Positions 15,155-46,071 of a stretch of DNA of 58,973 nt are shown piece after piece. Position 1 is the first letter of the stretch. The number at the start of each line of letters is the position of its first letter. Below the pieces are notes generated by a model. That model saw only the letters and a list, made by a program, of their open reading frames with translations, ran no database searches and had not been told where the DNA came from. The stretch is from contig JANNTQ010000026.1 of NCBI GenBank assembly GCA_031394435.1, positions 1 to 58,973 on the forward strand, read 5' to 3'. Both the position numbers and the translations under genes were made by a program. Source of the DNA: Betaproteobacteria bacterium. GTDB lineage: Bacteria > Pseudomonadota > Gammaproteobacteria > Burkholderiales > SG8-39.

Positions 15155-15241
15155 GCCGGAATGGCGGAATCGGTAGACGCAGCGGACTCAAAATCCGCCG
15201 GTGGCAACACCATGAGAGTTCGAGTCTCTCTTCCGGCACCA
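15155..15241 (+). tRNA. tRNA-Leu (anticodon CAA), class II with long variable arm, encoded CCA
   Basis: Acceptor stem GCCGGAA/TTCCGGC. Anticodon loop CT-CAA-AA. T-arm GAGAG-TTCGAGT-CTCTC. Discriminator A plus CCA. A TATAAT hexamer lies at 15137-15142, just upstream. Confidence 0.9.
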
Positions 15242-15358: not shown

Positions 15359-16450
15359 ATGGCGAAAGCGCAGCTACTCGTGCTGCCGGCGGCGCGCAAC
15401 ACGGCGATGGTGGTCGACGACCAGTCAACCGGCCGCGCCATCCTCGAGCAGGTGGTGCGCTCGCTCGACGGGCGGGTGTCGGTGGAAGGTTTCGGCCGCC
15501 CGGTGGACGCGGTGGTGTGGGCCACGCGCCACATCGCCGACCTGGTGCTCGTCGACTACATGATGCCGGAGATGAACGGCATCGAGCTGGCCAAGCGCCT
15601 GCGCGCGCTGCCCGGCTACGAGCACGTGCCGATCATGATGGTCACCGCGCACGACGACCGCAAGGTGCGCTACGACGCACTGGACGCGGGCGTCACCGAT
15701 TTCCTCATCAAGCCGGTGGATGCGCGCGAATGCATGGCGCGCTGCAGGAACCTGCTTACCCTGCGCCGCCAGCACCTGGCGCTGGAGGACAAGCGGCGCC
15801 TGCTCGAAGGCATGGTGGAGGAGGCGACGCGCGAAGTGCGCGACCGCGAGAAGGAAACGCTGATGCGCCTGGCGCGCGCCGGCGAGTTCCGCGACGAAGA
15901 AACCGGCCACCACCTGGTGCGCATGGCGCGCTACTCGCGACTGATCGCCGACACCATCGGCTTGGAGCGCGAGGAAGCCGAGACCATCGAGCTCGCCGCG
16001 CCGCTGCACGACATCGGCAAGATCGGCATCCCCGACCAGATCCTGCTGAAAAAGGCCAAGCTCGACGGCCCAGAGTGGGACACCATGCGCAGCCACCCGC
16101 TGATCGGCCACGAAATCCTCAAGGGCAGCGCTTCCAAGTACGTGCGCATGGGTTCCTTGATCGCGCTCGGCCACCACGAGAAGTACGACGGTTCGGGCTA
16201 TCCCAACGGCCTGGTGAGCGACCACATCGCGCTGTGCGCGCGCGTGGTGGCGGTGGCCGACGTTTACGACGCGCTCACTTCGGCGCGGCCCTACAAGAAG
16301 GCCTGGACGAGCGAGGAGGCCTTCGAGTTCCTGCGCCAGCAGCGCGGCAAGCACTTCGATCCGCACCTGGTGGACGCTTTCATCGGCGTGCAGGGCGAGG
16401 TCGAGCGCATCCATCGCGAGCTGCGCGACCCCGAGGCGGTGCGCGCATGA
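15359..16450 (+). CDS. rpfG: Two-component response regulator, receiver + HD-GYP c-di-GMP phosphodiesterase (RpfG-like)
   Basis: REC (VVDDQ ... [13 protein letters not shown] ... IKP). HD-GYP ([23 protein letters not shown]). The stop overlaps the start of the downstream RpfC-like kinase. Confidence 0.85.
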
Positions 16451-18975
16451 TGCCGGGTGCGAGCCTGCTGCGATGGATGCGCGCGCGGCTCGCCGCACGG
16501 CCCGACACCGAGCACGAGCAGGCGATCGTGCGCATCGCGGTGGGGGTGGTGCTGTTCGTCTACCTGCTGCCGGGAGCGCTGCGCGAGACCGGCTTCGCGC
16601 CGGGCACCGACCGCCTGTACCTGGCGGTGATGGTCGGCTACCTGGCGTTCGCGCTGGCGGTGTATGCCGGCATCCTGTTCCAGCCCGGCATCTCGACCAT
16701 GCGGCGCCTGGCGAGCGCCTGCGTGGACATCGGCGCAGTGACCTTCTTCATGGCGCAGTCCGGCGTGTACGGCGTGCCGATGTTCATGTTCTACATTTGG
16801 GTGACCCTGGCCAACGGCTTCCGCTTCGGCCAGCGTTACCTGTTGTTCGTCCTTGCGCTATCGGTATGCGGCTTCGGCGTGGTGCTGCTGGTGGACGAGT
16901 TCTGGTCGCTGCACAAGACCGAGGGCCTGGGGCTGATCACCGCCTTCATCGCGCTGAGCTTCTACGTGCGCTCGCTGGTGACGCGCATGTTCGATGCGGT
17001 GGCGCGCGCCGAGGCCGCCAACCAGGCCAAGCGCCGTTTCATCTCGGTGGTGAGCCACGAGATGAGAACGCCGCTGAACGCCATCATCGGCATGTCCGAC
17101 CTGATGCGCGACACCACGCTGTCGCGCGAGCAGGCCGACATGCTGCAGACGCTGCGCGGCTCGAGCAACGTGATGCTGGGCCTGGTCGAGGACGTGCTCG
17201 ACTTCTCCAAGATCGAGGCCGGCAAGCTGGTGCTGGAGCGCACCGATTTCGACCTGCACGCGCTGGTGAACAGCACCAGCCGCATCCTGCAGGCGCAGGC
17301 GCAGGCGAAGAGCGTCGAGTTCGTGGTGTCGATGATGCCGGAGGTGCCGCCGGCGTTGCGCGGCGACGCGCACCACCTGCGACAGGTGCTGATCAACCTT
17401 GCCGGCAACGCGGTCAAGTTCACCGAGCGCGGCAGCGTCACGGTGCACGTGTCGCTGCAGGAGGAGACTGAGGCGGCCGTGCGGCTCAAGTTCTCGGTGC
17501 GCGACACCGGTGTGGGTATCCCGCCGGTAGCGCAGCAGCGCATCTTCGACAGCTTCACCCAGGCCGACCAGTCCACCACGCGGCGCTTCGGCGGCACGGG
17601 GCTGGGCACCACCATCGCCAAGCAGTTGGTCGAGCTGATGGGCGGCAAAATTGGCCTGGAAAGCGCGGTCGGCCTGGGCAGCACTTTCTGGTTCGACATC
17701 CTGCTCGACAAGCAGGCCGAGCGCGCGGGTGCCGGCGCGGGAGAGCTGGCCGGGGCGCGCATCCTGCTGGTGGGCTTCCCGGAGGCGCGCGCACAGCCGA
17801 TCGCCCTTTCACTGGCTGCCTGGGGCGCGCAGTCGGTGCACGCTGCCACGCTTGAAGAAGCAGGCGACCGCATTGTCGCCGACATCGCGCTTGCCAAGCC
17901 CTACCACAGCGCGCTGCTGTACTCGGAGCGCGGCGACCCGCAGCTCGCGCGGCGCTTCCGCCGTGTGGCGCCGGAGCCGGCGCCGCCGGTGGTGCTGGCG
18001 GCGCCGCGCGAAGCCGAGGTGCAGCGCTTCGCCGCGCTCTCGGGCGGCTTCGGCGCGGTGCTCGAGCTGCCCTTCGACAAGCGCCAGTTGTTCCACGTGC
18101 TGCACGCCATCTCGTCCGCCGGCGAGGCGCGCGACGGCGTGGTACGGCTGCAGGATTACGCCAAGCGCGACCAGGGCGCGAAACGACTGTCGGTGCTGGT
18201 GGCCGACGACAACCCCACCAACCGCGAGGTGCTGGGCAAGATCCTGGAGCGCGCCGGCCACGGGGTGACCCTGGCTGCCGACGGCGATCTGGCGCTCGAC
18301 GCGATGGAGGCCGGCCACTTCGACATCGTGCTGCTCGACCGCAACATGCCCGGCCTGAGCGGTGTGGAGACCCTGCAGGCGATTCGCCTGATGACCCGCG
18401 GCCGCGAGCGCCTGCCAGTGGTGATGCTGTCGGCCGACGTGACCCTGGAAGCGAAACGCGAATGCCTGGAGGCGGGCGCCGACAGCTTCATCCCGAAGCC
18501 GGTGGAAGCGCTTCGGCTGCTGGACGAACTACGCACCCTTACCTCGGGCAAGGGCAAGGAGGCCGAGCGCGCCATGCATCCGGCGGCCGCGGCGCCGGTC
18601 GCGCCGAGCGCCGAGGCGGCGAACGCGGAAACGCTTTCGCACCTGGAAGAACTGGGCTCCACGCCCGACTTCCTCGAGCGGCTGGTCGGGGTGTTCATCG
18701 CCGACAGCCAGTCGCTGCTCGCCAGGATGGAAGCCTCGGTCGCAGCGCGCAATTTCGGCGAGTTCCGCGCCCACCTGCATGCCATGAAAGGCTCGGCGGC
18801 GAGCATCGGCACCGAACGTCTGACCCGCCTTTGCTCTGTGCTGGGCAAGACCTCCGACGCCGAGTTGCGCATGCAGGGCGCGGGGCTGTTGCGCTCCCTC
18901 AGCGAGGAGTTCGCGCTCGGCCGCGCAGCGCTGGAGCGTTACGTGCAGGAAAAGCGCAGCCGCTCGGCGAACTAG
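16447..18975 (+). CDS. rpfC: Hybrid sensor histidine kinase, RpfC-like (multi-TM DSF-sensor-type N-terminus, HisKA, HATPase, degenerate receiver, REC, HPt)
   Basis: The N-terminus ([19 protein letters not shown] ... [16 protein letters not shown]) matches my recollection of the Xanthomonas RpfC input region (RLSGRADSEHAQNLIRI ... MWVTIGNGLRYG). H-box [16 protein letters not shown] boxes, REC ([13 protein letters not shown]...LLDRNMPG...KP) and HPt ([11 protein letters not shown]). Confidence 0.85.
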
Positions 18976-19053: not shown

Positions 19054-19719
19054 ATGTCATTCTTCATCAAACTGGTCGAAGACAGCGACGCGGGGCGCCG
19101 CGCCCTGGAGGACGATCCGCGCGTGCACGCCATGATCCACCATGGCCTGAAGCTGGACGAATACCGGGCCTTCCTGCACGACCTGTATCACATCGTCTGG
19201 CATTTCTGCCCGGTGATGGCGGCCGCGGTGGCGCGCTGCGGGGACGAATTCCGCGACGTGCGCTATGCGCTGTATGAGCGCATCGAGGAAGAGAAGGGGC
19301 ACGAACACTGGGTGCTGGAGGACATCGGGGCTATGGGGGGCGATGTCGCCGCGGCAGGGTCCGTGCTGCCGAGCATCCCGGTGCAGGCGATGATCGCGTT
19401 CAATTACTACGCGGTCGAACGCGTGCATCCGTGCTCGGTGCTGGGCATGCTCTACATGCTCGAGGTGGTCTCCTCGGTGTACGGCGGCCGGGTGTCGGAT
19501 TCGATCGCCCGCGCGCTGGGCAGGGAGGCGGCGGCGGGCGGCTTCAAATTCCTGACCTCGCATGCGGCGATGGACCTCGACCACATGGCGAGCCTCAACC
19601 GGTTGCTGAAGACGGTCGCGGATCCAGCTGCACAGGCGGCGATCATCCGCACGACCAACGCCAACTTCCACCAGTTCGGCCAGATCTTCCGGCCGGGCGG
19701 CTCGCTCGCGCCAGCCTAG
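19054..19719 (+). CDS. Heme-oxygenase-like (iron-containing redox enzyme / HDO-type di-iron) family protein
   Basis: All-helical, 221 aa. It has an E..H carboxylate/His pattern (IEEEKGHEHWVLEDI; HAAMDLDH) typical of the PqqC/TenA/heme-oxygenase-like fold. A GGAG lies 6 nt upstream of the ATG. 78 nt downstream of rpfC on the same strand. Confidence 0.7.
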   Translation: MSFFIKLVEDSDAGRRALEDDPRVHAMIHHGLKLDEYRAFLHDLYHIVWHFCPVMAAAVARCGDEFRDVRYALYERIEEEKGHEHWVLEDIGAMGGDVAAAGSVLPSIPVQAMIAFNYYAVERVHPCSVLGMLYMLEVVSSVYGGRVSDSIARALGREAAAGGFKFLTSHAAMDLDHMASLNRLLKTVADPAAQAAIIRTTNANFHQFGQIFRPGGSLAPA

Positions 19720-19722
19720 GCA

Positions 19723-20856
19723 TCACGCGGCCTTGAGCAGCAAGGCCGGGCGCGGGGCCTGCTGCGCCTGCCGCGGCGCCAGCAGTTCCCTGGCCGTCAC
19801 GCTGAACATGCGCGCCGTCCCGGTGGTCGGCTTGCCGTCGAAATCCAGCCAGCGGTGGTTGTCGAAGTCGTAGAGCTTGCAGCGGCGCAGCGTGTCGAGG
19901 AACGAGCGCAGGGTGAATTTCTGCACCACCGCGTGCTCGCCCAGCAGCAAGTTGAGCTTTGCCTGCGCCGCCTTGAGGCGGTAGCACGGGATGCGCGGAT
20001 GCAGGTGGTGGACCGGGTGGTCCATCACGTCATGGGTCAGCCGGCCGAACCAGCCCGGCATCTTCCAGTGCACCGCCAGGAGCTCGCCGCGGTCGTAGAA
20101 CACCTTGTTGTCCTCGTCCGTGCCGCGCAGCCAGGCGACGTCCGGGTGGGTGTGCTGCAGGTACAGGCCCCATCCGGTCACGGCCATGAATACAACGAAC
20201 GGATAGACGACGCCCAGCGCAATCGCCTGCAGCGAGCCCGCGTTCGCGTAAAGCGGCGCCGAGGCCAGCGCGCCGAGGAACAGCGCGGCGTAGGCGAGCA
20301 GGAACCAGAAGTGCGGCCAGGCTGCCTTGCGGTGCGCTGCGGGCATCTGGCCACGGGGAAACAGCTTCATGTCCCACCAGCGCTCGACGAGGTAGTACAG
20401 TGCCCAGCCGATGACGGTGGGCCCGCGGTAGAGCCGCTCCAGCAACTGGCGCCATTTCGGCATGGCGTCGTATTCGGCCTTGGTGAACGGCGTGTAGGTG
20501 TCCTTGATCGGGCCGTTGGTGTGGGGGTGGTGGCGCACGTGGTGGTCGTATACCCACATCCGGTAGTTGTAGAGGCAGGGCGCATACACGATCACGCCCA
20601 GCAGCCAGTTGAGGCGTTTTCCCCGCACCAGGCAGCCGTGCGCGGCGTCGTGCCCGAGCGTCTTGAGGGCGCTGAGCTTGAAGCCGGCCACCGTGGCCGC
20701 CAGCACCTTCATCCACAGCTCGGGCAGCAACAGCACGCCGGCGATGCCCGCCCAGTACAGGCCGAAGTCGTAAAGGAAGAATGCCAGGCCGACGGCCGTG
20801 CTGGACCTGACGTGGGGCGCGATCTGTCGCAGCGCTTCGCGTTGACTGATAAGCAT
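19723..20856 (-). CDS. Membrane fatty-acid desaturase family protein (Delta12/DesA-like His-box enzyme)
   Basis: Three His boxes (HDAAHG; HHVRHH; HDVMDHPVHHLH), the LQHTHP motif and hydrophobic segments. AAGGAGA RBS. Starts 16 nt after the rpfF-like stop. Confidence 0.85.
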   Translation of the reverse strand: MLISQREALRQIAPHVRSSTAVGLAFFLYDFGLYWAGIAGVLLLPELWMKVLAATVAGFKLSALKTLGHDAAHGCLVRGKRLNWLLGVIVYAPCLYNYRMWVYDHHVRHHPHTNGPIKDTYTPFTKAEYDAMPKWRQLLERLYRGPTVIGWALYYLVERWWDMKLFPRGQMPAAHRKAAWPHFWFLLAYAALFLGALASAPLYANAGSLQAIALGVVYPFVVFMAVTGWGLYLQHTHPDVAWLRGTDEDNKVFYDRGELLAVHWKMPGWFGRLTHDVMDHPVHHLHPRIPCYRLKAAQAKLNLLLGEHAVVQKFTLRSFLDTLRRCKLYDFDNHRWLDFDGKPTTGTARMFSVTARELLAPRQAQQAPRPALLLKAA

Positions 20857-20872
20857 GGGAGTCTCCTTGTGC

Positions 20873-21820
20873 TCAGCCTACGGCCGCCAGCGCGCCGGTG
20901 CTCTCGTTCGCCGCGTCCGCCGTGATGTCGACGACGTCGCCGTGCTCCATGCGCCTCATTTGCGAGCGCACGATGCGGCTCATCATCTTCAGGTCGCGGT
21001 CCTCGATGCGCAGCGCCGCGTCCACCCAGGTCTCGGCGATGGCGTCCAGCTCCTCGCGCGTGATCGGCGACACCTGCTGGCGCGTGCGGTGCAGCGCCTG
21101 CATGCCGTTGCGCCGGCGGTCGTTCTTCATGATCCACTCCGCGACCGCCGCCTCGCCCTGGCCGTCTTTCGCCAGCACGTCGACGATACCCATCTCGTGC
21201 AGCTTCGCCGCCGGCAGCACCTTGCCGGAGAGGATCAGTTCCTCCGCCGCGCGCAGGCCGATGCGGCGCGTGAGCAGGCTCACCGCGCCCATGCCCGGAA
21301 ACAGGTTGAACAGGATCTCCGGCAGTCCGAGCTGCGCCGACTCCTCCGCCACCAGCACGTCGGAGGACATGGCGCATTCGAAGCCGCCGCCCAGCGCGTC
21401 GCCCTGCACCAGGGAAATGGTGGTGAGCGTCGGGCAGAAGTAGTTCTGGATGCGCGGGTGGACGTTGTCGATGCACAGGCGCGCGTAGTGCGCAAGTGCT
21501 TCGCGATCGCGCGCCTTGATCAGCAGCACGAACAGGGCCAGGTCACCGCCCAGGTTGAATACGCGCGGCACGCGCGACGCGCACACGTAGTAGTGCGCTT
21601 TCTGCAGCTCGCCGCCGACTTCCACGCGGCCGCCGTTGGCGGCCAGCGCGCTGTCGTGCTGCCGGATGTCCTTCAGCAGGCCCAGGCTGAAGCAGGGTGT
21701 GCCTTTCGGCTGGAAATAGCCCCAGATCGTGCCCGTCGCCGGTTCGAACTCCGTAAGGTACTGCGAAGTGGCCTTGCCGTAAGGCAACCTCAGGCCAAGT
21801 ACGTCGCGCATGTTGCTCAT
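20873..21820 (-). CDS. rpfF: Crotonase-fold DSF synthase (RpfF family enoyl-CoA hydratase/thioesterase-like)
   Basis: Near-identical blocks to Xanthomonas RpfF as I recall it: VFNLGGDLALF, SLVQGDALGGGFECAM, GLPEILFNLFPGMGA, and ETWVDAAL...MSRIVRSQ. Both catalytic Glu positions are present (GGGFE, LPE). I chose the ATG at 21820, which follows GGAGAAGGAA, over the longer ORF start at 21916. Confidence 0.88.
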   Translation of the reverse strand: MSNMRDVLGLRLPYGKATSQYLTEFEPATGTIWGYFQPKGTPCFSLGLLKDIRQHDSALAANGGRVEVGGELQKAHYYVCASRVPRVFNLGGDLALFVLLIKARDREALAHYARLCIDNVHPRIQNYFCPTLTTISLVQGDALGGGFECAMSSDVLVAEESAQLGLPEILFNLFPGMGAVSLLTRRIGLRAAEELILSGKVLPAAKLHEMGIVDVLAKDGQGEAAVAEWIMKNDRRRNGMQALHRTRQQVSPITREELDAIAETWVDAALRIEDRDLKMMSRIVRSQMRRMEHGDVVDITADAANESTGALAAVG

Positions 21821-21914
21821 TTGATGTTCCTTCTCCGTAAAGAAGGCCCCCCTGGCGGGAGCCGATGCCCAAGGTCCGGACGGTGCGTTACCCGTTTCGA
21901 ACCTCCCAGTAGTC

Positions 21915-21944
21915 ATTTAACGCTGTTTGACAATCAATATGCAA
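21915..21944 (-). promoter_or_regulatory. Candidate sigma70-type promoter for the rpfF-desaturase operon
   Basis: On the minus strand: TTGCAT - 18 nt - TTAAAT. It lies in the AT-richer intergenic region about 95 nt upstream of the rpfF start. Hexamer match only. Confidence 0.25.
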
Positions 21945-22177: not shown

Positions 22178-22414
22178 ATGTACGCGATCGTCTACAAATC
22201 CGACGGTTTTCCGGTCTGCCGGCAGATTGCGGGCGTGATGCCAGACCCGGTGGTGACCTGGAACACCGAAGCCGCGGCGAAGGCGTTCATCTCCTCCAAG
22301 GACGGCGACAAGGATTTCCAGGCGGTGGCGCTGACCGACGAGGCGATGGACAAGATGGCCGCGTCGATGGGCTGCCCGGTCGAGTCGATCACCTTCGACC
22401 CCTACCCAGGTTAG
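22178..22414 (+). CDS. Hypothetical 78-aa protein (no recognisable domain)
   Basis: ATG preceded by GAAGGGGG. Codon usage looks host-like. Located at the island edge, with no motif I recognise. Confidence 0.5.
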   Translation: MYAIVYKSDGFPVCRQIAGVMPDPVVTWNTEAAAKAFISSKDGDKDFQAVALTDEAMDKMAASMGCPVESITFDPYPG

Positions 22415-44589: not shown

Positions 44590-46071
44590 ATGGCACCTCA
44601 GGACACCTCCCCGAGGGCGGCCCTGCGTTTTCCGCGTTCCTTCCTCGGCTTGCTGGTGACGGGATTCCTGCTCGTCGCAGCGCCGCTAGCCGGCGCGTTG
44701 CTCTACTCGGCGTGGAATACGCAGCACCTGGCGGAGCAGAGCCGCAGCGCGGTGTACAACGCGGCGCAGGCTGCCCGCGGCAGCCGCGAACTGGTCAACC
44801 GCGTCGGCTCGATCGAGCGGCTGGCGCAGCAGGTCGCGCTGCTGCCCGACGCCGAGCTGCTGCAGGATTACGAGCGGCTGCACCTCGGATTCAAGCAACT
44901 GGCGCAAGAGCTCGCGCGCCTGCCGCTCGACGCCACGCAGCTCGCCGCACTTCGCCGCACCATGGGCGAGGAGCAGTCCCTCTACGAGGTCCTCGCCCCG
45001 AACGCGGCCTTGCCGCCCGACGCACGCGCCGTGGCGGCTCGGGTGGCCGAGCTTGCCGAGAGCGCGCACGAAGTGCTGGCGATCAGCTATCGCGTGGCCG
45101 ACGGCGAAGTCGAGCGGCTGCGCGCCGCCGCGGAGGGCGTGCAGCGCCGGCTGCTGCAACTGGTGCTTGCCACCATCGCGGTGGCGCTCATCATCGCGCT
45201 GGCGCTGACGCGCGTCATCGCGCGCCCGATCGCCGAGCTCGACGCTTCCATCCGCCAGCTCGGCGGCGCCGACTTCGCTCAGCCGATACGCGTCAGCGGG
45301 CCGCAGGATCTGCGCGACCTCGGCGAACGCCTGGACTGGCTGCGGCGCCGGCTGACCGAACTGGAGGCGCAGAAGAACCGATTTCTGCGCCATCTGTCGC
45401 ATGAACTCAAGACGCCGCTTGCCTCGCTGCGCGAGGGCGCGGAATTGCTCAACGACCAGGTCGCTGGCCCGCTTGCGCCGTCGCAGCGCGCAGTGGTCGG
45501 CATCATTCGCGACAACAGCGTGAAGCTGCAGAAGCTGATCGAGGAACTGCTGGACTACCAGCGCGCGATGCACGCTGCCGCTTCGCTCGAGGTGCAGCCG
45601 GTGCGGCTCGACGCGCTGGTGCGCGAGGTGGCCGAGGCGCACCGGCTGTCCGCGCTCGCCAAGGAGCAGCGCGTGGCGCTGGAGTTGGCACCGCTGGCGG
45701 TGGACGCCGACCCGGAGAAGCTGCGCTCGATCGTCGACAACCTGCTCGGCAACGCTATCAAGTTCACGCCGCGCGGCGGCAGCATCTCGGTGCTGGCGCG
45801 AGAGGCCGACGGCCGCGTCACTATCGAGGTGATCGACTCCGGCCCGGGCGTCCCGCTCGAGGAGCGCGAGGCGGTGTTCGAGTCCTTTTTCCGCGGCCGC
45901 GCCAAGGCCGGCGGGCGCGTGGCAGGCAGCGGGCTGGGCCTGGCCATCGCGCGCGAGTTTGCCGAGGCGCATGGCGGGCGCATTTCTCTGGTGGCGGGTG
46001 GGCCGGGCGGGCATTTTCGCGTCATCCTGCCCAAGCGGCCGGAGCCTCTGATGCTGGCGGAGGCGGCATGA
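44590..46071 (+). CDS. Two-component sensor histidine kinase (2 TM, HAMP, HisKA, HATPase); QseE/GlrK-like by context
   Basis: H-box LSHELKTPLASL. N box NLLGNAIKFT. G boxes DSGPGV and GSGLGLAIA. Confidence 0.88.
   Translation: MAPQDTSPRAALRFPRSFLGLLVTGFLLVAAPLAGALLYSAWNTQHLAEQSRSAVYNAAQAARGSRELVNRVGSIERLAQQVALLPDAELLQDYERLHLGFKQLAQELARLPLDATQLAALRRTMGEEQSLYEVLAPNAALPPDARAVAARVAELAESAHEVLAISYRVADGEVERLRAAAEGVQRRLLQLVLATIAVALIIALALTRVIARPIAELDASIRQLGGADFAQPIRVSGPQDLRDLGERLDWLRRRLTELEAQKNRFLRHLSHELKTPLASLREGAELLNDQVAGPLAPSQRAVVGIIRDNSVKLQKLIEELLDYQRAMHAAASLEVQPVRLDALVREVAEAHRLSALAKEQRVALELAPLAVDADPEKLRSIVDNLLGNAIKFTPRGGSISVLAREADGRVTIEVIDSGPGVPLEEREAVFESFFRGRAKAGGRVAGSGLGLAIAREFAEAHGGRISLVAGGPGGHFRVILPKRPEPLMLAEAA

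Follow-up and report, generated by a model that had tools for sequence, protein, structure and literature searches.

A DSF-type quorum-sensing locus in which an RpfF-like synthase lies beside a predicted di-iron oxidase and a membrane desaturase

Signals in the DSF (diffusible signal factor) family govern virulence, the formation of biofilms, and tolerance to antibiotics. RpfF-family enzymes dehydrate 3-hydroxyacyl-acyl carrier protein (3-hydroxyacyl-ACP) to a cis-2-enoyl thioester, which is then released, and to our knowledge all known members of the DSF family are thought to come from RpfF alone. The best described systems are rpfF/rpfC/rpfG (with rpfB) of Xanthomonas campestris, a genus in which the signal undergoes RpfB-dependent turnover, and the Burkholderia DSF (BDSF) system RpfF_Bc (BCAM0581)/RpfR of Burkholderia cenocepacia, for which we know of no oxygenase partner at the characterized locus. 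Here we describe an rpf cluster in a 58,973-nt stretch of DNA (the window; contig JANNTQ010000026.1 of assembly GCA_031394435.1, from a Betaproteobacteria bacterium), in which an RpfF-like crotonase lies beside the genes for a heme-oxygenase-like di-metal oxidase (HDO) and a membrane desaturase.

As in X. campestris, a crotonase with both catalytic glutamates is clustered with an RpfC-type hybrid kinase and an RpfG with REC and HD-GYP domains. Unlike in X. campestris, the synthase belongs to family NF006452, and an HDO and a membrane desaturase, rather than rpfB, accompany it; a tblastn search with a single query detected no rpfB-like AMP-binding ligase in the 59-kb window. Structures of the RpfF_Bc type match the window synthase at about 1e-47, whereas the receptor pair is RpfC/RpfG and not RpfR. 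We are confident that the locus is a DSF-type quorum-sensing circuit. The rpfF/C/G circuit itself is already known; what is probably new is the widespread occurrence of oxygenase partners beside an RpfF-type synthase, and the signal is probably a chemically modified, previously undescribed one of the DSF type. The original prediction knew of no characterized rpf locus with this enzyme set. In the searchable open-access literature and bioRxiv, including a 2026 review of HDOs, we found neither an RpfF-HDO nor an RpfF-desaturase pairing described. The core of the cluster consists of the following features.

15359-16450, + strand: rpfG-like regulator, 363 aa, with Pfam Response_reg and HD_5/HD (REC plus HD-GYP cyclic di-GMP phosphodiesterase)
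16447-18975, + strand: rpfC-like hybrid sensor kinase, 842 aa, with a multi-transmembrane N-terminus, HisKA, HATPase, REC, and HPt (Pfam)
19054-19719, + strand: HDO, 221 aa, PF14518
19723-20856, - strand: membrane FAD2/DesA-like desaturase-family protein, 377 aa, PF00487, three His boxes
20857-20872, - strand: rpfF-desaturase spacer, 16 nt, with an AAGGAGA ribosome-binding site, read directly from the sequence
20873-21820, - strand: RpfF-family DSF synthase-like crotonase, 315 aa, NF006452, matching RpfF structures in the PDB

The start of rpfC overlaps the stop of rpfG by 4 nt, HDO begins 78 nt past the rpfC stop, and the HDO stop is 3 nt from that of the convergent desaturase gene. On the opposite strand the rpfF stop, TGA at 20873-20875, is followed by the 16-nt spacer GCACAAGGAGACTCCC, which contains AAGGAGA, and then by the desaturase ATG at 20856. 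The layout that had been predicted, with a desaturase 16 nt downstream of the crotonase behind its own ribosome-binding site and an HDO convergent to it, 78 nt after the RpfC-like kinase, was thus found in every detail. Judging from gene spacing, the desaturase gene would be the second gene of an rpfF operon, and HDO would be cotranscribed with rpfGC.

The crotonase fold of the RpfF-like protein was recognized by Pfam ECH_1 (1.5e-20) and also by ECH_2. Its best solved relative is Xanthomonas RpfF (3m6m, E 1.5e-51), and the Burkholderia and Cronobacter RpfF structures match as well, the RpfF entries in the PDB ranging from 1e-47 to 1e-51. The RpfF-specific blocks and both catalytic glutamates that had been claimed for this gene were located: FNLGGDL occupies residues 88-94, and by alignment E148 (in GGGFE) and E168 (in GLPEILF) correspond to E141 and E161 of the X. 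campestris enzyme. Of 93 related RpfF-like genes, drawn from every locus type, 92 keep both glutamates. The protein passes NCBIfam NF006452 (345 bits, cutoff 177) and fails the RpfF equivalog NF053515 (210 bits against a cutoff of 550), and we therefore regard it as a member of an RpfF-related sister family rather than as the Xanthomonas equivalog. All of the partner-linked RpfF-like proteins tested were likewise NF006452.

The presence of rpfG and rpfC in the same cluster, as in related loci, links the synthase to a DSF receptor pathway. Together the two genes encode a full two-component pair, namely a hybrid histidine kinase with a transmembrane sensor, HisKA, HATPase, REC, and HPt, and a REC-HD-GYP regulator. 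Hydrophobic segments of RpfC fall within residues 23-179, and full-length matches (33-37%) sit beside RpfF in loci from Gallionella, Thiobacillaceae, and gammaproteobacterial metagenome-assembled genomes (MAGs); in a window-type relative, locus L081, rpfC is likewise called at 842 aa. RpfG has HDIGK at 217-221 and GYP at 280-282, and homologs 47-58% identical to it are found in rpf clusters of other lineages.

The HDO matches Pfam PF14518, 'iron-containing redox enzyme' (68 bits, cutoff 28.9). Its predicted metal ligands are E80, H83, E137, H170, D174, and H177 (ExxH / E / HxxxDxxH), a 3-His/3-carboxylate set. Across 25 homologs of 26-69% identity, E80, H83, and H177 never vary, and conservation of E137, H170, and D174 is 90% or higher. 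The AlphaFold2 (AF2) model is a seven-helix heme-oxygenase-like bundle (pLDDT 89, pTM 0.86), for which Foldseek returned 3dde, CADD (TM-score 0.81), and UndA (0.76), with PqqC, TenA, and heme oxygenase also matching, at overall TM-scores of 0.7-0.8. Closest in fold, and the closest solved relative by single sequence (8e-08) and by profile (3.8e-33), is Sden_3740 (PDB 3DDE), an uncharacterized heme-oxygenase-like protein of Shewanella denitrificans; in the family profile search it was followed by CADD, MboA, and UndA. The original prediction had named a place in ligand-less TenA/PqqC families as a point against itself. A metal-free enzyme of this type was rejected, given a ligand set conserved down to 26% identity and the absence of a PF03070 match for the window HDO, and the database names carried by HDO homologs, 'PqqC' (an automated label in JGI records) and 'TenA family regulator', are either generic or wrong. 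From these sequence and model data, the HDO is predicted to be a metal enzyme of the di-iron oxidase type.

The ligand motifs align with those of both CADD and UndA, the Pseudomonas 1-undecene synthase. UndA shares the heme-oxygenase-like fold and the ExxH...E...HxxxDxxH pattern; however, it is only about 16% identical to the window HDO in structural alignment, the window HDO is PF14518 and not PF03070, and UndA was matched by profile (3e-07) and not by single sequence. Assignment to the UndA type by close sequence was thus rejected. The RpfF and AMP-ligase partners described below make it plausible that the HDO, too, acts on a medium-chain fatty acid, and oxidative decarboxylation, suggested by the UndA-like ligand spacing, is conceivable but unproven.

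CADD is the best characterized match in both structure (TM-score 0.81) and profile (E 1e-12), and folK, three genes away, and panC lie nearby both in the window and in loci L081-L084. The HDO might then be a self-sacrificing p-aminobenzoate synthase of the CADD type, tied to these folate genes and unrelated to rpf. The sacrificial residue of CADD is Tyr27 (PMC9522330). In our alignment Tyr27 of CADD (CT610) falls on V24 of the window HDO, in a variable column, and the window protein has ExxH where CADD has a longer E...H spacing. Furthermore, the tandem and fusion loci considered next lack folate genes and always include RpfF. We therefore rejected a CADD-type p-aminobenzoate synthase, which we consider very improbable.

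Soil metagenomes are very rich in close homologs of the HDO (over 120 clusters with at least 74% identity), and the HDO subfamily accompanies RpfF in three architectures. The first is the convergent one of the window, whose gene order is tgt-queA (-), tRNA-Leu(CAA), rpfG>, rpfC>, HDO>, <desaturase, <rpfF, a 78-aa open reading frame (ORF), and dNK-folK-pcnB. Three long contigs with HDOs 74-80% identical to that of the window have the same synteny (tgt-queA, rpfG>rpfC>HDO> <rpfF, orf78, dNK-folK-pcnB) without the desaturase. Because close relatives have the same locus without the desaturase, the HDO is the ancestral partner in the window lineage. The second architecture is a tandem. A metagenome scan seeded with a standalone HDO 48% identical to that of the window yielded 80 loci, in 68 of which HDO is followed by rpfF on the same strand, at a gap of about 70-150 nt. 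The remaining 12 contigs run for under 300 nt beyond HDO, so that the arrangement holds in 68 of 68 informative loci. The next conserved neighbor is a transmembrane hybrid kinase, and Rubrivivax MAGs are among the members.

The third architecture is covalent. An exhaustive search of 1.8 billion representatives gave 949 members of the HDO family, many of which are fusions of 600-750 aa. In a Pfam scan of the fusions, two proved to be ECH (RpfF-like) plus HDO and the others AMP-binding (acyl-activating) plus HDO. RpfF-HDO fusions are 575-685 aa long and form 16 clusters at 90% identity with both Pfam domains, including proteins from Rhodothalassiaceae MAGs. In one of them, P0244, the N-terminal half, with both glutamates, shares 45% identity with the window RpfF, and the C-terminal half shares 49% with the window HDO. 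Genes neighboring the fusions encode REC-PAS-histidine kinase and hybrid histidine kinase proteins, and an MMPL exporter gene lies directly downstream. Taking the three independent architectures together, including covalent fusion, we consider it highly likely that the HDO is a catalytic partner of the RpfF synthase.

Two of these fusion types drew further observations. At L085 and L086 (12678-15352), an RpfF-HDO fusion locus is found a few kilobases from luxI/luxR (Autoind_synth / Autoind_bind) and a gene for a PhyH-family dioxygenase, which places two quorum-sensing systems side by side. The AMP-binding-HDO fusions (about 700 aa; P0260, P0265, P0268, P0301, and P0435) form a large group with an HDO part 33-38% identical to that of the window, and in the single context available, on one short contig, a T_hemolysin (PF12261) gene, an SDR gene, and a methyltransferase gene lie alongside. 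These fusions look like a separate lipid pathway; since their ligase domains are of the long-chain-acyl AMP-ligase kind, they indicate fatty-acyl substrates for the HDO family.

An HDO that turns the signal over was the alternative offered in the original prediction, as an enzyme coexpressed with the sensor. In its broader form, the HDO, the desaturase, or both would inactivate the DSF signal oxidatively, in place of RpfB-dependent turnover. The window HDO does lie behind the sensor genes and not behind the synthase gene, its relatives are fused to acyl-activating AMP-binding domains of the RpfB/FadD type, and the single-query search found no rpfB-like gene in the window. On the other hand, covalent fusion to the synthase and the tandem order in all 68 informative loci point to a joint biosynthetic unit, a synthase permanently joined to a destroyer of its own product is unlikely, and at the fusion loci an exporter gene comes directly downstream. 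We regard turnover as improbable. A biosynthetic and fatty-acyl-directed role for the HDO is favored because of its fusion to the synthase, the exporter downstream of the fusions, and the acyl-activating fusion partners.

The desaturase matches Pfam FA_desaturase PF00487 (E 6.5e-23), and the three His boxes and LQHTHP motif of the original prediction were identified as HDAAH (69-73), HHVRHH (105-110), LQHTHP (233-238), and HPVHH (280-284). All 14 homologs compared keep the His-box residues unchanged. The hydrophobic segments (residues 26-59 and 182-233) and the helical AF2 model (pLDDT 89) are those of an integral membrane protein. A fold search placed it nearest a FAD-like protein, a subunit of the Chlamydomonas FtsHi motor (TM-score 0.70), followed by a weak match to AlkB; a PDB search with the single sequence gave only noise, and a profile search only the same Chlamydomonas subunit. 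The pointers to Delta12 activity are automated 'omega-6 desaturase' names and LQHTHP, regiospecificity not being readable from sequence, and the protein scores 73 and 41 bits against the NCBIfam DesA and DesB equivalogs, for which the cutoff is 500.

In a survey of the desaturase family with one genome per GTDB species (80 loci), we clustered the ORFs within 5 kb without supervision. By far the commonest conserved neighbor was an RpfF-like crotonase, in 26 of the 80 loci by clustering and 27 by tblastn, followed by RpfC-like kinases (16 loci), PAS-GGDEF-EAL proteins with RpfR architecture (11), RpfG (10), and the FadL porin (8). The linkage of desaturase (DES) to rpfF takes at least six gene orders, with receptors of both the RpfC/RpfG and the RpfR type:

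rpfF>DES <rpfC<rpfG: Gallionella and several gammaproteobacterial MAGs
fadL>DES>rpfF <rpfC<REC<rpfG: Methylotenera
DES>rpfG>rpfC <rpfF: Thiobacillaceae
DES>rpfF <rpfR-like: Undibacterium, Herminiimonas, and Noviherbaspirillum humi
rpfF>DES and, convergent to them, a GGDEF-EAL gene: locus L047
divergent arrangement: an alphaproteobacterial MAG

In Undibacterium and Herminiimonas, the convergent PAS-GGDEF-EAL protein has the architecture of Burkholderia RpfR. Given this repeated selection beside rpfF, whatever the receptor type, it is on balance likely that the desaturase is coupled to the synthase reaction. In the Methylotenera loci (L049, L053, L055, L057, and L063), a gene for a FadL/TodX outer-membrane fatty-acid porin directly precedes desaturase>rpfF, and a single-domain REC protein is encoded between rpfC and rpfG.

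Our best reading, which we hold to be probable though well short of certain, is that the locus is a DSF circuit whose synthase has a dedicated di-iron oxidase and, in the window sublineage, a desaturase as well, and that it makes an oxidatively tailored lipid signal. By the chemistry of its family, the RpfF-like enzyme would form a cis-2-enoyl thioester by dehydrating 3-hydroxyacyl-ACP and would then release it, giving a fatty-acid-derived signal. The soluble HDO would use O2 to oxidize either this product or its ACP-bound precursor, candidate reactions being oxidative decarboxylation, hydroxylation or epoxidation, and desaturation; the original prediction had suggested a diene acid or a volatile olefin as the product. 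The desaturase, presumably translated from the rpfF mRNA, would introduce another O2-dependent change in that acyl chain or, with lower confidence, would work on membrane lipids in concert with expression of the synthase. Perception of the signal would fall to RpfC, the membrane hybrid kinase, which would relay it to the HD-GYP phosphodiesterase RpfG, thereby lowering c-di-GMP. The substrates, the order of the steps, and the difference of the signal from a plain cis-2-enoic acid are what we infer from the genes.

Several observations weigh against this reading. As far as we know, the characterized Xanthomonas and Burkholderia systems have neither an HDO nor a desaturase partner. In P0184, an HDO homolog 79% identical to that of the window, Arg replaces His83 as well as His170, which may leave the protein without catalytic activity. 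The 78-nt gap between rpfC and HDO holds a GC-rich hairpin and TACAAT, and in L081 a Coq4-family gene (PF05019, 7193-7999, -) stands between the two genes, so that HDO need not follow rpfC directly. Of the 80 desaturase loci, roughly two thirds (about 53) have no rpf genes within 5 kb, and the nearest desaturases outside the window sublineage (L003, 77%; L006, 65%; Pseudoxanthomonas, 51-54%) are not beside rpfF: that of L003 is flanked by phosphoesterase and arg genes, and no rpf genes are near those of L006, Pseudoxanthomonas, and Rudaea. In neighbor-joining trees, which are rough, RpfF-linked desaturases are spread over several clades and the window's own clade is mostly unlinked. Profile searches of the collected loci found HDO and desaturase together only in the window sublineage. 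Finally, loci were gathered by HDO or by desaturase, and the counts therefore give RpfF among partner loci and not partners among RpfF genes.

Some of these points would suit a different role for the desaturase, namely as an ordinary aerobic phospholipid desaturase that leaves the signal untouched. Expressed together with rpfF, it would hold membrane unsaturation steady against the drain that the dehydratase and thioesterase activities of RpfF place on the 3-hydroxyacyl-ACP and acyl-ACP pools, with only the HDO tailoring the signal. Its fold and motifs are of the FAD2/FAD6/DesA acyl-lipid type, the non-rpf loci include its closest relatives, and close relatives of the window organism have the rpf-HDO locus without it. 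In addition, an effect of RpfF on membrane integrity has been reported in Xanthomonas oryzae (PMC8659556). Independent recruitment beside rpfF, in no fewer than six arrangements and alongside both types of receptor, nevertheless exceeds what would be expected of a housekeeping enzyme, and the Methylotenera-type desaturase gene lies between that of a FadL-type porin and rpfF. The desaturase family also includes membrane enzymes whose substrates are free acids or chains bound to ACP: UndB is a free-acid decarboxylase and JamB an acyl-ACP acetylenase, both working on non-lipid acyl substrates in small-molecule pathways. The window protein has PF00487 and a three-His-box di-iron site in common with them, whereas LQHTHP and its best fold match, a plastid FAD-like protein, make it look FAD2/FAD6/DesA-like. 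We consider the phospholipid role rather unlikely, but it is the most serious of the alternatives discussed here.

For the origin of the desaturase gene, the original prediction had treated one outcome, a sole housekeeping lipid desaturase that lies next to unrelated genes in relatives, as a point against itself. In part this is what we found, the nearest relatives lying beside unrelated genes; in the family at large, RpfF is the commonest conserved neighbor (26-27 of 80 loci). With its nearest relatives in unrelated contexts, the window desaturase looks like a later, independent recruitment into an existing rpf locus; it was inserted between HDO and rpfF in the window sublineage, to which L001, L002, and L005 also belong. 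The idea of a conserved trio acting as one unit fared less well than that of oxygenases working with RpfF. Functional coupling of both enzymes to RpfF is very likely, whereas the survey of co-occurrence revealed two separate partnerships instead; HDO and desaturase are almost never together, so that neither is required for the other. In L001 (2012-2783, -) and L002 (2459-3233, -), a second HDO copy lies between the intact HDO and the desaturase. This copy is N-terminally truncated, has an identical frameshift in both contigs, and by eye, over the region compared, is nearer the window HDO than the intact copy is, which suggests that a lineage already equipped with an HDO received an rpfF-desaturase-HDO cassette by transfer.

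Such an insertion, which is clear relative to sister genomes, and a tRNA-Leu gene directly upstream of rpfG raise the question of whether three unrelated enzymes were simply juxtaposed near a tRNA gene. The composition of the desaturase gene gives no signal of recent horizontal transfer, its GC content at third codon positions (GC3, 0.918) equaling that of its neighbors (rpfF, 0.915). Moreover, rpfF is a rare gene, and chance cannot account for 27 of 80 desaturase loci, 68 of 68 informative tandem loci, and 16 fusion clusters. A coincidental adjacency is barely credible, and we take it to be effectively refuted by these recurrence counts.

The region around the rpf cluster has 68% GC and is a chromosomal neighborhood. 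Three further features flank the core genes.

15155-15241, + strand: tRNA-Leu(CAA), flanked directly by queA and rpfG, at the rpf cluster's edge
21821-21935, - strand: rpfF 5' leader, with a promoter-like block and a terminator-like hairpin
22178-22414, + strand: ORF of 78 aa, divergent from rpfF, with no Pfam match

The leader contains a promoter-like TTGCAT-N18-TTAAAT block and, directly upstream of the rpfF Shine-Dalgarno sequence, a GC-rich hairpin (21863-21845) with a U-run, which together resemble a terminator. Both the block and the hairpin keep their positions in L081, L082, L084, and L002, and the hairpin might regulate the synthase as a transcription attenuator. As a structured RNA the leader was rejected, its fold z-score being -0.3 (not significant), and an Rfam scan of the window gave no match except the tRNA-Leu gene. 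The 78-aa ORF is found at the same position, with 70-81% identity, in L081-L084 and L002 and is absent from the other locus types. A second histidine-kinase core at 45373-46044 (+) is 31% identical to RpfC residues 195-425.

Beyond the window, it is possible, though we put it forward tentatively, that soil Burkholderiales, Rubrivivax-like bacteria, and Rhodothalassiaceae-like Alphaproteobacteria share a widespread DSF branch in which a two-part or fused RpfF-HDO synthase makes a new class of lipid signal, that the desaturase provides a second, independent tailoring route in many other rpf clusters, and that the window lineage combines both. Candidate signals of the RpfF-HDO branch are an oxidatively decarboxylated hydrocarbon or ketone and a hydroxy- or epoxy-enoic acid. 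Were oxygenases obligate partners of the synthase in whole lineages, DSF-type signals would span a larger chemical space than assumed, their production would be tied to O2, and biosensor or mass spectrometry surveys tuned to cis-2-enoic acids would miss them. There would also be a new subfamily of HDOs acting on a fatty-acyl substrate, and an enzyme of the desaturase family would have a place in a signaling pathway. The RpfF-HDO fusions, as Rosetta-stone proteins, offer biochemistry an entry point in a single polypeptide.

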